Shown here: positions 2,884-62,613 of the stretch, in pieces
How the letters are laid out: every line of letters begins with the position of its first letter
How positions within the stretch are numbered: the stretch's first letter is position 1
DNA from: Proteiniphilum sp.
GTDB lineage: Bacteria > Bacteroidota > Bacteroidia > Bacteroidales > Dysgonomonadaceae
Assembly: GCA_028705255.1 (NCBI GenBank)
Contig: JAQWDW010000006.1
Coordinates: 5,562 to 69,561 of the forward strand
Length of the DNA stretch: 64,000 bases
Reading direction: 5' to 3'
The notes under the pieces: generated by a model
Seen by the model: only the letters and a program-made list of their open reading frames with translations
Told to the model about the DNA's origin: nothing
The model's database searches: none
Translations under genes and position numbers: made by a program

Positions 2884-4125
2884 TCAGGCTACACGCAAGT
2901 GGTGCAGATCGGAATTTTCGAGTTGATGGATGGCATATTCGCGTGTCACATGCAACTTTTTCTTTTCCTCTGAAGGCAGCGTGAACATGGCATCAATCAT
3001 GATGGCTTCCACAATGGAGCGTAGTCCGCGTGCGCCCAGCTTAAACTCAATGGCTTTGTCCACAATATATTCATAGGCACCCTGATCGAAGGTGAGGGCC
3101 ACCCCATCCATTTCAAACAGCTTCTGATATTGCTTGACGATGGAGTTCTTGGGCTCGACCAGAATACGTAACAAAGCGTCTCTATCCAGCGGCTCCAGGT
3201 AGGTGAGGATGGGAAGCCTTCCAATGATCTCCGGAATCAGACCGAACGATTTTAAATCGAGCGGCGTGATATATTTCAACATGTTGTGCCGGTCGATGTT
3301 CGCTTTGTCGCTACTGGCGGCATAACCCACCACACGTGTGTTGAGACGTTGGGCAATTTTCTTCTCAATGCCGTCGAAGGCACCTCCGCAGATAAACAGA
3401 ATGTTCTTGGTGTTAATTGCAATCATGCGCTGTTCCGGATGCTTGCGACCACCCTGGGGCGGTACATTCACCACAGAACCCTCGAGCAGCTTCAACAGTC
3501 CCTGCTGTACACCTTCACCACTCACATCACGGGTGATGGAAGGGTTGTCACTTTTACGGGCTATTTTGTCGATTTCGTCGATGAACACAATACCTCTCTC
3601 GGCAGCATTGACATCGTAGTCGGCCACCTGCAGCAGTCGGGTGAGGATGCTTTCGATGTCCTCGCCCACATATCCCGCCTCGGTTAGTACTGTGGCATCC
3701 ACGATGGTGAAGGGGACATGCAACATCTTAGCAATGGTGCGTGCCAGCAAGGTCTTGCCTGTGCCGGTGGCACCTACCATGATGATGTTTGATTTCTCGA
3801 TCTCCACCTCATCTTTCAGATTTTTCTGTAGAATACGTTTGTAATGGTTGTAGACCGAAACCGACAGAAACCGCTTTGCACTATCCTGCCTGATCACGTA
3901 CTGATCCAGGAATTCCTTGATCTGTGCCGGCTTGGGCAGAGATAAGAGGGAGATACCCGGATCGGCTTTTGCATTACTCTTAAAGGTATCGTTCACGATC
4001 TCGTGAGCCTGCTCGGCGCACATATCGCAGATGTACCCTGTCATGCCTGATATGAGCAGGTTTACTTCCTGTTCGCTTCTTCCGCAAAAACTGCAATGAT
4101 TGCTGCTGTTCGCTTTTTTAGCCAT
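2884..4125 (-). CDS. clpX: ATP-dependent Clp protease ATP-binding subunit ClpX
   Basis: N-terminal CSFC...CDMC zinc finger, Walker [26 protein letters not shown]. Confidence 0.98.
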
Positions 4126-4137
4126 CGTTTTTTACTT

Positions 4138-4830
4138 TTATCCTTTTCTTGTCAGTACATCATCCACCATGCCATAAGCTTTGGCTTCCGATGCGGTCAT
4201 CCAGAAGTCGCGATCAGAGTCACGTGCTACCTCCTCAAGAGGTTTTCCGGAATGTTTGGATATGATGGTATACAATTCCTGTTTGATCTTGGCAATTTCG
4301 CGGGCTGTGATTTCGATGTCGGAGGCTTGACCTTGTACACCTCCCATGGGCTGATGGATCATCACTCGGGAGTGGGTAAGGGCGAAGCGTTTCTTCTCGG
4401 CGCCGGAAACCAGCAACACAGCAGCCATGGATGCAGCAATACCTGTGCAGATGGTGGAGACATTGCTCGAGATGAACTGCATGGTGTCATAGATGCCCAG
4501 ACCGGCATATACCGATCCTCCAGGGGAGTTGATGTAAATGGAGATATCCTTGCCGGGGTCAGCCGAATCGAGATAAAGCAGTTGCGCCTGTATTACATTG
4601 GCTGTATAATCGTCGATGGCTGTTCCGAGGAAGATGATGCGGTCCATCATCAACCTTGAAAAAACATCCATCTGTGCCACGTTGAGCTGACGTTCTTCAA
4701 TGATGGTGGGGGAAATGTAGCCTCCTCCCTGGCTGGTGATTTGCATGTAACTTTCGAGTCTGGTGCTGCTCATGCCCAGATGCTTTGTTGCATATTTTTT
4801 AAAATCGTCTTGCATAGATTCTTTTATCAA
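4138..4830 (-). CDS. clpP: ATP-dependent Clp protease proteolytic subunit ClpP
   Basis: DVFSRLMMDRIIFLG, YINSPGGSV, AASM (catalytic Ser), RVMIHQP. The true start may be the second Met (MQDD). Confidence 0.98.
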   Translation of the reverse strand: MIKESMQDDFKKYATKHLGMSSTRLESYMQITSQGGGYISPTIIEERQLNVAQMDVFSRLMMDRIIFLGTAIDDYTANVIQAQLLYLDSADPGKDISIYINSPGGSVYAGLGIYDTMQFISSNVSTICTGIAASMAAVLLVSGAEKKRFALTHSRVMIHQPMGGVQGQASDIEITAREIAKIKQELYTIISKHSGKPLEEVARDSDRDFWMTASEAKAYGMVDDVLTRKG

Positions 4831-52188: not shown

Positions 52189-52588
52189 GGGGTTGACCGG
52201 TTTTGACAGCGGGTAGAAGAGGTTTGTAAGCATGCAGTGCGTTGTTGGTTTGCACTTTAATCTCAATCGGCAAAGCTATAACTGGCAATAATAACAATTA
52301 CGCTCTTGCTGCGTAACCGAAGTACAGTAGGTTAATCGCTTAATTCTGCCACATGTGGCGGAACAAGACATCACCCGGAAGCTGTGGCTTCGAAGCATTC
52401 CGATCAGGTGGTGCAGGTAAATCGGAGATAGGATAGGAGAGGCTTCGGCTCCTTTCCGAAATTAAGAAGATAAGGATTGAGTTTGGTGTCTTCAATCGCG
52501 CTCCTTCCCGACAAATAAAATGAAGATAAGCATGTAGAAAGCGAATTGCTTCCTCGTTTGGACGAGGGTTCGAATCCCTCCAGCTCCA
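52189..52588 (+). ncRNA. ssrA: tmRNA; tag peptide (A)GNNNNYALAA encoded at 52284-52316
   Basis: 5' GGGGTTG pairs with 3' CAGCTCC-A, including the G3:U wobble; T-arm GAGGG-TTCGAAT-CCCTC; internal tag ORF ending YALAA-stop. Confidence 0.97.
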
Positions 52589-52626
52589 CAATACACATTG
52601 ATTATCAATGTATTGCATTAATCACA

Positions 52627-52668
52627 CACAATAACACGCTCATCTTGAGCTGTTATTGTGTTTTTTTT
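52627..52668 (+). terminator. ssrA terminator
   Basis: CACAATAACA-C-GCTCA / TGAGC-TGTTATTGTG hairpin followed by T8. Confidence 0.85.
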
Positions 52669-52758
52669 GTAGTTACACAAATAAAAGTTCAGTCATTATC
52701 CAACAGTGGGTATTATTTATTTATGGTTTATTGTTTTTTGAGACATCGCTAATCGCGT

Positions 52759-53007
52759 GATAAACTGTTTCCTTTTATCTCTCCTCAGAAATACAATGAT
52801 GCCATCGAGGATATATTCACTTTGGTCAAGATAATAGGTATTGTGACATGGTACAACCCTAAGGACAAGGTAGGTGAGCATAGACTTCTCAATGAGATTG
52901 CAAGCTCACATCTTGCCAGGAGAAAATTTATAGGTAATCTCTATTCACAGGTCCAGGACCCGAACCTTATAGGATCAATGACTGGGCATGTCGAAGAGAG
53001 TATGGCA
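52759..53007 (+). pseudogene. C-terminal fragment of a tyrosine integrase
   Basis: Reads DKLFPFISPQKYNDAIEDIF...NEIASSHLARRKFIGNLYSQVQDPNLIGSMTGHVEESMA, with HxxR (52909) and the second catalytic His (52987). There is no N-terminus, and similarity stops just before the expected catalytic Tyr. Confidence 0.8.
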
Positions 53008-53012
53008 TTGAT

Positions 53013-53043
53013 AAAAAAATCCCGCTACCTGTTGAAGCGGGAT
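53013..53043 (-). terminator. Terminator of the peroxiredoxin gene
   Basis: ATCCCGCT/AGCGGGAT arms with a T-tract on the minus strand. Confidence 0.75.
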
Positions 53044-53067
53044 CAATTTCTATCTTTTCAGACCCTG

Positions 53068-53790
53068 TCAGCTTTTCAGTAAAGCGTTTTCAATGGTTTC
53101 TTTTGAGAGTTTTTTCGTGCAGAAGAACCAATCATAACAATGCATTTCTTCCTCTCTGGTTTCCATTCGTTCTTTAGCTACACCGCAGGAACCGGCTGTA
53201 GGTACGATCACTTCATCTCCCGGACGCCAGTCGGCAGGCAAGGCGACTCCAAATTCATCGGCTGTCTGTAAACCGATAAGGATACGCTTCAGTTCGTCAA
53301 AATTACGGCCAAGTGATAACGGGTAGTAGATAATTGTGCGAATAATACCCCTGGGATCCACGAAAAAAACAGCTCGGACAGCCTGTGTGGAGTTCTCGTT
53401 GGGTTGAATCATCCCATACTTTTTGGCAACTTCCATCGAGATATCCTCAATCAATGGAAAGGTAACTTCTACCTCTTTCATCCCCTTATATTCAATTTTT
53501 TCTTTAATGGTACGCAACCAGGCTATATGGCTGTACAACCCATCCACAGATAATCCAACCAACTGGCAGTTCAGATTTTCAAAATCTTTTTGCATCGAAG
53601 CAAATGTCATGAACTCAGATGTGCATACCGGTGTAAAATCGGCAGGATGACTAAATAGTATCTTCCATTTTCCGGGAAAGTCATCCGGGAAATGAATAAC
53701 GCCCTGCGTTGTTTTTGCTGTAAAAATAGGAGCTTTGTCGCCGATTCGAGGCATAGGAGTAGTGTTTTCTTGATTTGTTTCCATTTTCAT
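53068..53790 (-). CDS. Peroxiredoxin, Prx6-type with extra C-terminal Cys
   Basis: SHPADFTPVCTSE (peroxidatic Cys), GRNFDE, PADW.PG, GSC, CYDWFFC. Confidence 0.92.
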   Translation of the reverse strand: MKMETNQENTTPMPRIGDKAPIFTAKTTQGVIHFPDDFPGKWKILFSHPADFTPVCTSEFMTFASMQKDFENLNCQLVGLSVDGLYSHIAWLRTIKEKIEYKGMKEVEVTFPLIEDISMEVAKKYGMIQPNENSTQAVRAVFFVDPRGIIRTIIYYPLSLGRNFDELKRILIGLQTADEFGVALPADWRPGDEVIVPTAGSCGVAKERMETREEEMHCYDWFFCTKKLSKETIENALLKS

Positions 53791-53909
53791 TTCATTTTAA
53801 ATTAATTACTATATGTTATAAGTGAACAAGTTATAGGTATAGATATACAATAATAAACTGAAGATTCTTGTCAGATGTATAACACGACATTTCCAAATGC
53901 AAATGATAA

Positions 53910-54142
53910 TTATTTTTCGCATGGCCTGGACCAGGCCGAAATACCACCCTCCAGCACTTTCACATTGGTGAACCCGTTTGCCTGTAGGTAATCAGATAGG
54001 GAATCTCAATACAATCGCCAACGGCATAGATATCGGGATCGGATGTCTGCTAGATGGTTATCTCTGCATTCTCATCCATGCGACGTGCTTTAGAAGCTGC
54101 TTTTGGCCATGCAGCAGAACCGCCTATAACAACAACTTTCAT
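53910..54142 (-). pseudogene. Collapsed CoA-disulfide-reductase/rhodanese fusion gene (three fragments)
   Basis: MKVVVIGGSAAWPKAASKARRMDENAEITI* (54142-54050), then QTSDPDIYAVGDCIEIPYLIT (54049-53987), then in another frame LQANGFTNVKVLEGGISAWSRPCEK* (53987-53910). Its ATG overlaps the DUF134 stop (ATGA). Confidence 0.85.
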
Positions 54143-54555
54143 TTTTCTTCCCCATTAATCGGTATTAACTCGTTATTGCCAAAACTTGTACAATTCTTAC
54201 AACGTACATGGTTCTCGATACCTCCTATCAATTTGTAACAACGCCTGCAACGAAACCATTCTTTGTCAAACTGCACATTACCACCCTCTATATTGATCAT
54301 CTTTCCTTCCACAAATGCCTGAGCAATAGTTTTACGGGCTTGTTCATAGATACGCGTCAGAGTGGGTCGGGAAACGTTCATCCGTTCAGCTGCCTGATCC
54401 TGGTTCAAACCTTCATAATCCAATAAACGGATTGCCTCATATTCATCATACAGCAATGAAACAGCACTCAACCTGTTCCGTGGAATGCCAAAGGGTTTAA
54501 ATCCCTGCATCAGGGGAGGATTCGATATTTTTCGGTTTTGTTTGGGACGAGGCAT
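54139..54555 (-). CDS. DUF134 family HTH regulator with a C-terminal CxxC-x12-CxxC
   Basis: MPRPK..R.I...P....FKP.G, DEYEAIRL.D.EGL.Q..AA.RM.VSRPTL.RI...AR..IA.A.VEGK; CRRC and CKNC. Confidence 0.9.
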   Translation of the reverse strand: MPRPKQNRKISNPPLMQGFKPFGIPRNRLSAVSLLYDEYEAIRLLDYEGLNQDQAAERMNVSRPTLTRIYEQARKTIAQAFVEGKMINIEGGNVQFDKEWFRCRRCYKLIGGIENHVRCKNCTSFGNNELIPINGEEK

Positions 54556-54607
54556 GATTTCAATTATCTATTTTTGTTACTTTGAAATCCAAAGATATAA
54601 AATAATT

Positions 54608-54623
54608 TTAAACTTATGTTCGT
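54608..54623. promoter_or_regulatory. Palindromic operator copy B (DUF134 promoter)
   Basis: TTAAACTTATGTTCGT matches ATGAACATATGTTCAT at 12/16. It lies 11-26 nt upstream of the minus-strand -7 box TATCTTTG (54597-54590). Confidence 0.5.
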
Positions 54624-54753
54624 AAATAAAATTATTTTTGATCCTAATTTTCCTCGGTTCTGTTTTTTTAATTTTCTCATTTTCTGATGTAAGAAAATTT
54701 CATATTACATTTTTTAGGCTACAAAAAAAATCGCAAAAAAATATACAAATTTA

Positions 54754-54785
54754 TTTGCATATCGAACATATGTTCATTACATTTG
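54754..54785 (+). promoter_or_regulatory. Promoter of the ORP-like operon with operator copy A in its spacer
   Basis: TTTG (54754-57), 20 nt spacer, TACATTTG (54778-85). The spacer holds TCGAACATATGTTCAT (54762-77; 14/16), including the perfect palindrome GAACATATGTTC. Confidence 0.75.
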
Positions 54786-54848
54786 CCGCATATTTAAAGC
54801 AAGGTACTTCTATAAGCTATCATAAAACCAAATAGAAAATATCATCCT

Positions 54849-55172
54849 ATGAAAGTAGCCATCACATCATCCGGCAAGGAACTGACATCTCTACCGGACA
54901 AGCGTTTCGGACGCTGCAACTGTTTTGTCATCTACGACACCGAGAACGACTCGGTGGAGGTTGTGGATAATCCCGGCAGGGATCTAAACGAGGGTGCGGG
55001 ACCTGCCGCTGCACAGCTGATCGCATCGAAAGGAGCCGAGATGATCATCACAGGACATTTGGGAGGAAAAGCAGCATCAATAGTGCAACAGCTCGGGATG
55101 CAGATGACTCCCCTGGATGAACAACACAGAAGTGTGGAAGAAGTAATTCAATTAATCAAACAAAACAATTAA
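54849..55172 (+). CDS. NifB/NifX (Di-Nase FeMo-co domain) protein, Orange-protein-like
   Basis: MKVAI.S.G, DKRFGRC..FVIYD, GAG..AAQ, IITG.LG.KA. Confidence 0.85.
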   Translation: MKVAITSSGKELTSLPDKRFGRCNCFVIYDTENDSVEVVDNPGRDLNEGAGPAAAQLIASKGAEMIITGHLGGKAASIVQQLGMQMTPLDEQHRSVEEVIQLIKQNN

Positions 55173-60702: not shown

Positions 60703-60749
60703 ATCGCCCATATTATTATATCGCATATAAAACTATTGAATTGTCCATT

Positions 60750-60900
60750 CTTCTTTTCCTCAACCCCAGGAAATCCCGATCCAAGCCGCTGCTTCAAGCC
60801 CCCGCCCATTAAAACATAAAAGTTTTTGAAAGCGGTATGATGGGCCAGCCTTATAAACGGGAAAAATATAAAACGAGGCTGGTGGAATCCTGTCCGTCAA
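60750..60900 (-). pseudogene. Possible eroded rhodanese-domain gene
   Basis: The minus strand reads ..DGQDSTSLVLYFSR, then after a frameshift IRLAH..AFKNFYVLMGGGLKQRLGSGFPGVEEK. This resembles the rhodanese LYC..G.RS...GF.NVY.L.GG...W...G.P pattern if TGT>TTT (C>F) and TGG>CGG (W>R) are assumed. Confidence 0.4.
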
Positions 60901-61781: not shown

Positions 61782-62561
61782 TTAAAAGGTGTATGAGTCA
61801 CCTGTTTTTACCGATTGAATCGGAAAGTTCTCAGAAAATGCCACCAGCGCAGGTAATGCGGTACAGTGCGAGGGAATGACATGAGACACCCTGTTTTTTT
61901 TCAGGTAATTGATGGTCTCAATGGTTTGCCGGTCCCGGTTTTTCAGATGAAAACCGCCCATGATACCGTAAATCCTCTGCTCGCCGGTAATGTTTCTTGC
62001 CTGTTCCAGGGTGTTCACCACCCCGGCATGACCACAACCGGTGATCACAAACAATCCTTTCTCTGTCTGTAAAGCGACTGCACTGTCGTCCACTACAAAA
62101 TCGGCTGTTCCGTTCTCGAACGAGAAGGCGGTTTGTTTCGATTCAAAATCAGTGATGCGGGGTATCTCACCCAGAAAGAGCACAGAGTTACTGATAGCGT
62201 AAGGTGCTTTGCTGGTGATGAGGTCAAACTGCTCTGCTGTTTCTTTCCGGCTCATCCTCAGACCAATGTAGGTGTGATCGGTATTTCTATATCGCTTCAC
62301 AAAACAGTCTGGATGGCAGAGCAGCTTGCCTCCTGTGAGATGTGCCAGTCCATTTCCATGATCATAGTGACCGTGACTCAGGATAATCAGTTCCCTCTCC
62401 TCCGGATCAATACCCATGATGAAAGCATTTTGCAAGAAGAGATCACTCTGTCCCGTATCGAACAGGAACTTTATCCCTTCATGCTCTATAAAATAGGAGA
62501 GGCCGTGCTCTGCACCGACGGAGCCACCGGAATAATTATCGGTGAGAATTGAAACTTTCAT
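61782..62561 (-). CDS. MBL-fold metallo-hydrolase (COG1237-type)
   Basis: AEHGLS, FDTGQS, LSHGHYDHGNG, DDSA, GCGHAG, GGFHL, HCT. Confidence 0.9.
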   Translation of the reverse strand: MKVSILTDNYSGGSVGAEHGLSYFIEHEGIKFLFDTGQSDLFLQNAFIMGIDPEERELIILSHGHYDHGNGLAHLTGGKLLCHPDCFVKRYRNTDHTYIGLRMSRKETAEQFDLITSKAPYAISNSVLFLGEIPRITDFESKQTAFSFENGTADFVVDDSAVALQTEKGLFVITGCGHAGVVNTLEQARNITGEQRIYGIMGGFHLKNRDRQTIETINYLKKNRVSHVIPSHCTALPALVAFSENFPIQSVKTGDSYTF

Positions 62562-62597: not shown

Positions 62598-62613
62598 ATG
62601 AACAAATGCTCAT
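62598..62613. promoter_or_regulatory. Palindromic operator copy C (MBL hydrolase promoter)
   Basis: ATGAACAAATGCTCAT (14/16). It overlaps the minus-strand TTTG (62606-03), 22 nt upstream of TATATTTG (62580-73). Confidence 0.65.

Follow-up and report, generated by a model that had tools for sequence, protein, structure and literature searches.

A 233-bp remnant of a CoA-disulfide reductase-rhodanese gene between the DUF134 and peroxiredoxin genes of a Proteiniphilum genome

Erosion of bacterial pseudogenes by a deletional bias was reportedly described by Mira, Ochman and Moran in 2001 for Rickettsia, Mycobacterium leprae and others. The 233-bp "gap" between the genes for a DUF134 regulator and a 1-Cys peroxiredoxin (prx) in the Proteiniphilum DNA analyzed here (the window, 64,000 nucleotides; the gap occupies 54142-53910 on the minus strand) resembles such cases, being the remnant of a gene of ∼565 codons for a CoADR-rhodanese (Npsr-type persulfide reductase), here called cdr, that has shrunk between conserved neighbors through mid-sized deletions at or beside short direct repeats together with point mutations. 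It does not differ in kind from the known process; the remnant is a pseudogene of the ordinary sort, worn down by deletions as already known from other cases, and what is unusual is the clarity of the case, the existence of a positional ortholog in a cultured type strain and at least seven independent erosions in a single clade. A second point of reference is provided by the DUF134-controlled ORP ("orange protein")-like gene sets of anaerobes, for whose orp operons Desulfovibrio vulgaris is the studied reference. The likeness is one of layout, with the remnant directly downstream of DUF134, a DUF134 promoter that bears GAACATAAGTTT and a divergent ORP-like operon. Compared with those gene sets, the cdr-prx arm is accessory and lineage-variable and lies outside the described ORP core.

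The third comparison is with the CoADR-RHD/Npsr enzymes themselves, with which the intact relatives of the remnant share the domain order Pyr_redox_2, Pyr_redox_dim, Rhodanese. For the 564-aa protein of one such relative, encoded on contig C141 of the same-genus genome G015, the best matches among solved structures are AfNpsr of Archaeoglobus (6PFZ; E 1.7e-136; PMC7969121), BaCoADR-RHD of Bacillus anthracis (3ICR), Npsr of Shewanella loihica (3NTA) and CoAPR of Enterococcus faecalis (8A56; PMC9405070), and its domains are Pyr_redox_2, Pyr_redox (161-240), Pyr_redox_dim (341-445) and Rhodanese. Both catalytic cysteines are conserved and aligned in this protein, namely the FAD-proximal Cys45 and the rhodanese Cys527, the latter equivalent to Cys519, the sulfur-accepting cysteine of the AfNpsr rhodanese (PMC7969121). 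In contrast, the window copy lacks both cysteines as well as the NAD(P)H and dimerization domains, is interrupted by a stop codon and a frameshift, has its GxGxxG motif disrupted, and is not a functional member of the family. The remnant encodes no enzyme, and the window adds no new function.

The initial annotation, made from the nucleotide letters, had read the gap as a full-length Cdr-rhodanese gene reduced to 233 bp with its pieces in their original order, and co-linear matches to intact genes bear out this reading; the three pieces, the Gly-to-Trp change, the ATGA overlap and the palindrome that it described are all present where it had placed them. Contig C141 of G015 (loci L023/L052) has the gene order DUF134, metallo-beta-lactamase (MBL)-fold, NifX-like, 564-aa gene, prx, and its five blastn blocks with the window (table 1) are co-linear, DUF134 and prx flanking the cdr pieces in the expected order. 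The window prx is co-linear with the prx of all related loci. The tblastn search maps the pieces to residues 5-35, 281-309 and 540-564 of 564, and relatives with an intact DUF134-cdr-prx arrangement exist, for example L047, L046 and L052. These matches to intact genes in syntenic loci, by both blastn and tblastn, establish descent from a CoADR-RHD/Npsr gene. The closest intact locus (L047) belongs to the cultured type strain Petrimonas sulfuriphila DSM 16547, where three co-linear cdr matches are likewise found and the DUF134 ortholog shares 91% amino acid identity with that of the window. Upstream it retains a divergent NifX-like, Gly-rich, NifX-like, ARMT1 operon (78-86% identity to the window) and, because it is thus syntenic on the other side of DUF134 too, L047 is a positional ortholog with an intact cdr (2901-4604). 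Piece 2 of the remnant is closer to the type-B loci described below (89%) than to L047 (78-81%), a difference that over 64 nt is within noise; these identities leave a minor doubt as to which relative would be the best proxy for the ancestor.

Each piece is short (21-25 codons), and three motif-like stretches might in principle resemble such a gene by chance within an ordinary intergenic spacer. The odds of this are vanishingly small, given blastn matches to the P. sulfuriphila and same-genus MAG genes at ∼80% nucleotide identity with E-values of 1e-9 to 1e-25, strict co-linearity between orthologous flanking genes in many loci, and a third-position bias of the differences that shows coding ancestry; chance similarity of short motifs was ruled out on the E-values and the co-linearity. 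With L047, L046 and L052 intact at this position and three deletions, a TAG codon and a +1 frameshift in the window copy, 54142-53910 is almost certainly a non-functional pseudogene remnant of cdr produced by three deletions and point mutations. Its proper annotation is as a pseudogene, rather than as an intergenic spacer or a 30-aa open reading frame (ORF), and its value is comparative, residing in an exceptionally clean reconstruction and in the repeated independent loss of the same gene.

Table 1. Features of the cdr remnant and its surroundings in the window, decayed cdr loci of relatives (positions on their own contigs), and blastn blocks shared by the window and contig C141 of G015
Feature	Position	Strand	Evidence or state
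Intact DUF134 (PF02001) HTH regulator gene, 138 aa	54139..54555	-	Pfam E 1.1e-23
MBL-derived start, ATG + 4 codons (MKVVV)	54128..54142	-	14/15 nt identical to MBL stub start ATGAAAATTGTTGTT after DUF134 in L047
cdr piece 1, residues ∼9-33/564, IGGSAAWPKAASKARRMDENAEITI, FAD-binding GxGxxG	54053..54127	-	85% nt identity to L047 2934-3008; tblastn E 1e-9
TAG stop at deletion-1 junction	54050..54052	-	Register table
cdr piece 2, residues 281-301, QTSDPDIYAVGDCIEIPYLIT, C-terminal FAD motif of Pyr_redox_2	53987..54049	-	Pfam Pyr_redox_2 264-284/291
cdr piece 3, residues 540-564 and stop, LQANGFTNVKVLEGGISAWSRPCEK, end of rhodanese domain	53910..53987	-	Pfam Rhodanese 81-101/102; blastn 85%, E 8e-10
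Perfect 7+1+7 palindrome GGCCTGG-N-CCAGGCC	53923..53937	.	Within cdr piece 3; sole exact copy in window
Intact 1-Cys peroxiredoxin gene prx (AhpC-TSA + 1-cysPrx_C), last of ancestral operon	53068..53790	-	Pfam E 8.8e-31
DUF134-type operator-like palindrome GAACATAAGTTT, upstream of DUF134	54610..54621	-	Motif scan
Second operator-like palindrome GAACATATGTTC, upstream of divergent operon	54764-54775		Motif scan
cdr of L049 (G015:C163)			Single 1.9-kb deletion
cdr of L091 (G012)			Single 1.54-kb deletion; residues ∼523-564 kept
cdr of L050			Single 2.1-kb deletion, NifX removed too
cdr of L054 (G020)			MBL truncated; cdr down to ∼100 nt
cdr of L090	5504-5735		Multi-piece compressed remnant; four internal deletions
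cdr of L089	1675-1800		Multi-piece compressed remnant; three internal deletions; prx lost as well
blastn block DUF134			79% identity, E 2e-100
blastn block cdr piece 1			80% identity, E 4e-20
blastn block cdr piece 2			80% identity, E 3e-16
blastn block cdr piece 3			85% identity, E 8e-10
blastn block prx			78% identity, E 0.0

The remnant holds a 30-codon ORF (54142-54050, minus strand) that reads MKVVVIGGSAAWPKAASKARRMDENAEITI up to its TAG stop, beyond which the unchanged frame carries on as QTSDPDIYAVGDCIEIPYLIT, and the frame offset by one base yields LQANGFTNVKVLEGGISAWSRPCEK before a TAA at 53912-53910, with 120 nt separating this TAA from the start of prx. Deletion sizes were fixed by base-by-base register tables with L047 as the reference. 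Where the initial annotation counted two internal deletions, the tables give three, of 251, 738 (in frame) and 715 nt (+1 frameshift) and 1,704 nt in total, leaving the window copy with ∼71 of ∼565 codons. Cdr piece 2 is 78-89% identical to intact genes at the nucleotide level.

The 251-nt deletion (deletion 0) links codon 5 of an MBL stub to approximately codon 9 of cdr, in frame. In L047, DUF134 is followed by an MBL stub with an ATGA overlap (ATGAAAATTGTTGTTTTGTCTGAT, MKIVVLSD...), a spacer and then cdr (…AGAATTATTGTTATCGGCGGTTCT), and the corresponding window sequence is ATGAAAGTTGTTGTTATAGGCGGTTCT, in which the MBL register holds up to 54128 and the cdr register from 54135. The junction therefore lies within TTGTTGTT (54135-54128), with the crossover in TTGTT and 8/9 nt common to both parents. 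The remnant ATG overlaps the TGA stop codon of DUF134, whose 3′ end is GAAAAATGA. This ATGA overlap had been noted before and taken for the start of the reductase gene; the overlap is real, and the registers of the L047 stub at the junction mean that neither it nor the first five codons belonged to cdr originally. An original start of cdr at the overlap was ruled out, the overlap belonging to an MBL-fold gene or stub in L047, L049 and L054. MBL 5′ remnants are also retained after DUF134 in G015:C163 (L049) and G020 (L054), which confirms the ancestral presence of the MBL gene at this site.

Deletion 1 (738 nt, 246 codons) lies between ...ATCTTTCAGAAA and ...ACATGCAGACA, with ATCTTTCAGA and ACATGCAGACA as its left and right parents and the microhomology T[T/G]CAGA, and took residues 34-280, including the redox-active Cys45 of the SxxxCG motif (Cys42-45), which is missing from the remnant. 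The most parsimonious path to the TAG at this junction would be a junction codon TTG later changed to TAG. Deletion 2 (715 nt) has a left flank ending in ...CTGATTACC (53995-53987) and a right flank beginning with CTACAGG (53987-53981), so that the junction at 53988/53987 has a 1-nt overlap, and a 6-nt repeat, CTGATT, stands 2-3 nt upstream of each breakpoint. It took residues 302-539, including the rhodanese cysteine Cys527, and left the last 25 residues, which sit one base out of frame as piece 3. Pyr_redox and Pyr_redox_dim, responsible for NAD(P)H binding and dimerization, are gone, and the third glycine of GxGxxG is replaced by tryptophan (TGG at 54109-54107, GGG in intact relatives), so that this motif is not intact either. 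Deletions 0 and 1 sit on short direct repeats, and the joint of deletion 2 shares 1 nt. Earlier guesses at the junction microhomologies were about right, with CAGA found at 54049-54046 and ...TTACC ending the left flank at 53987. Judged from the breakpoints, such short repeats would fit illegitimate recombination or slippage during replication. When metagenome contigs were scanned with the exact junctions for intermediates with one or two deletions, nothing but the finished three-deletion state was recovered, on a contig that is chimeric and of low coverage.

The palindrome in piece 3 had been suggested as a template-switch scar. The palindrome itself is perfect, and its link to the deletions is not supported: a deletion scar was ruled out by the 50 nt that separate it from the closest junction, and perfect 7+1+7 palindromes number six in the 64-kb window. 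At the same site, 13/13 intact relatives and the remnant in L091/G012 read GC(C/A/T)TGGCCnT(A/G)n, encoding AWP(W/Y), and the window reads GCCTGGTCCAGGCCA; since the relatives read otherwise, the palindrome represents 5-6 clustered changes, specific to this lineage, in a gene that no longer functions. Template switching at 53923-53937 may have converted a quasi-palindrome into a perfect one. A role as a repeated operator or a terminator was also discarded, the element being unique in the window and absent from relatives, with no T-run after it and no terminator called.

The source MAG is fragmented into 157 contigs, and assembly or binning could have created the compression through reads of a full-length gene that were collapsed or chimeric. 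This is extremely improbable. An independent MAG from another study (G002/L121) has the identical structure, with 4 differences in 2.2 kb and none within the remnant, and a contig from a fermentation metagenome (L125) spans all three junctions and is 99.9% identical to 54199-53395 (805 nt); the same remnant in two other assemblies excludes an assembly artifact. One of these contigs, L125, is itself chimeric upstream, which would favor an artifact, but point mutations accompany the junctions, which coincide with microhomologies, and other genomes have their own, differing remnants. In L125 (1-2075), similarity to the window breaks off at position 54199 and an unrelated S-layer-like gene takes over; with a coverage of 2.4x, the contig is probably a chimeric assembly.

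The remnant is thus a real feature of the genome, and its differences from L047 bear on its age. There are 39 nucleotide differences, distributed over first, second and third codon positions as 11, 3 and 25, respectively (2/0/9 at positions 1/2/3 for piece 1), and this third-position excess indicates that most of the divergence accrued while cdr was under purifying selection and that decay was recent. Compared with the divergence from the Petrimonas locus the decay is young, yet it predates the separation of the two Proteiniphilum assemblies that are nearly identical. No intact Cdr-RHD was found elsewhere in the 97%-complete MAG, where the best match is 27% identical and without the rhodanese part, and a functional cdr paralog elsewhere in the genome was rejected on this basis.

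Loss of cdr recurs among relatives. Our survey covered 79 DUF134 loci from public genomes, with two intact architectures, DUF134-(MBL stub)-cdr-prx (type A; L046, L047, L082, L086 and L093) and DUF134-MBL-NifX-cdr-prx (type B; L052, L057, L060 and L066). Breakpoints differ among the decayed loci (table 1), and every remnant keeps segments missing from the others, so that none is derivable from another. In a DUF134+prx tree, decayed loci fall beside intact sisters with support of 0.91-1.0. The Proteiniphilum/Petrimonas clade has seen at least seven independent losses of cdr, at least six of them placed on the tree and L089 making a seventh. All decayed lineages keep DUF134, and all but L089 keep prx. 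The clade can be viewed as a natural experiment with at least seven independent cdr losses, each with different breakpoints, in which prx outlasts all but one.

Two of the MAGs carry both states of the locus. The Proteiniphilum sp. STF2_107 MAG has one decayed and one intact DUF134-cdr-prx locus (L090 vs. L093) with flanks that are 93% identical, and the G015 MAG has an intact locus on contig C141 and a decayed one on C163. The coexistence of intact and decayed loci within single MAGs suggests either two paralogous loci or a mixture of strains in the bin. In a genome of another family (L045, G036:C194; 3190-4944, 5373-6534), a small gene lies between cdr and prx, a putative Fur/PerR-family regulator as judged from its sequence, and cdr is interrupted by a masked run of N and an apparent TGA.

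Among six cdr-intact loci scanned, a DUF134-type operator-like site was found upstream of DUF134 in four (L093 has none), and none of the six has such a site before cdr or prx. Within the window, no DUF134 operator-like site was found inside the remnant or before prx, and no terminator-like site was called between DUF134 and prx; a 14-nt repeat common to the prx and DUF134 upstream regions was not significant. From the lack of a terminator-like site and the position of operator-like sites only upstream of DUF134, we infer read-through from the DUF134 promoter into prx. Both cdr and prx were probably cotranscribed with DUF134, as prx probably is to this day, transcription passing through the remnant on its way. 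A tmRNA gene (52200-52591, plus strand; Rfam RF00023, 122 bits) follows prx at close range, in convergent orientation, and the downstream synteny is broken in the window, relatives having a DUF1080 lipoprotein after prx.

Persistence of the remnant might also be explained by co-option of all or part of it, with the last 30-125 nt of cdr serving as a promoter or 5′ regulatory element of prx or the 30-aa ORF as a leader peptide. The 3′ end of cdr is indeed kept beside prx in five of the seven independently decayed loci (window, L091, L054, L090 and L089), and the ORF retains its ATGA coupling to DUF134. Co-option is nevertheless unlikely, since L049 and L050 have deleted the whole 3′ end of cdr and still keep prx, the internal pieces retained differ between lineages, and selection against deletions into prx alone explains the survival of the 3′ end. 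The scans described above place no operator-like site in the remnant or upstream of prx. No structured RNA is apparent either, with no Rfam match to the remnant in a search of 52592-54900 and no excess folding stability (z-score -0.30 vs. shuffled controls).

Erosion of a dead gene, the reading that we prefer, began from an ancestral operon of DUF134, an MBL-fold gene or stub, a Cdr-rhodanese (an NAD(P)H persulfide/CoA-disulfide reductase of the Npsr/CoADR-RHD type) and a 1-Cys peroxiredoxin, as still present in P. sulfuriphila DSM 16547. The 251-nt deletion fused MBL stub codon 5 to cdr at about codon 9, the 738-nt deletion removed residues 34-280 with Cys45, and the 715-nt deletion residues 302-539 with Cys527; a nonsense change, probably TTG to TAG, and the Gly-to-Trp change in GxGxxG were added lesions. 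At most a 30-aa peptide would now be made from the remnant, by coupling to DUF134.

The remnant documents that a DUF134-headed operon once held a persulfide/CoA-disulfide reductase and an MBL-fold enzyme beside a peroxiredoxin, and this ancestral content ties the DUF134 regulon to sulfane-sulfur and thiol redox chemistry. Going by its gene content, the operon would plausibly handle persulfide, CoA-disulfide and peroxide, and it is plausible, as the initial annotation proposed, that cdr offers the best clue to the physiology of the cluster. Petrimonas sulfuriphila, which keeps cdr, reduces S0 to H2S (PMC5940944). We raise, as a tentative and somewhat doubtful suggestion, that the repeated losses were not neutral, cdr being the enzyme of elemental-sulfur reduction, the defining trait of P. 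sulfuriphila, and being shed by each lineage that enters a habitat, such as the anaerobic digester, without use of sulfane sulfur. If so, presence or absence of cdr would be a genomic predictor of the elemental-sulfur-reduction phenotype, and the adjacent 1-Cys peroxiredoxin would be independent of Cdr as its reductase. The link between gene and phenotype is testable in cultured P. sulfuriphila DSM 16547 with its intact syntenic operon.

A possible second and much older cdr remnant lies elsewhere in the window (60729-60866, plus strand), where 46 codons can be aligned over their full length with the C-terminal 46 residues of Cdr-RHD (…NIKVFESGMMGQPYKREK vs. …NVKVLEGGIAAWPYSREK; 37% identity, tblastn E 1e-3, blastp 2e-6) and include an in-frame stop; this stretch has no Pfam match. 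It directly follows the thioesterase gene of the ORP-like operon, and the order thioesterase-MBL-cdr is intact in a genome of another family (G034); within the genus, the flanking thioesterase occurs only in G000 and G002. The window also contains an intact MBL-fold gene (MKVSILTDNYSGG...; 61782-62561, minus strand) that is a paralog of the MBL gene found after DUF134 in relatives, and this intact gene is preceded by a DUF134-operator-like palindrome, TGAACAAATGCTCA, at 62599-62612.
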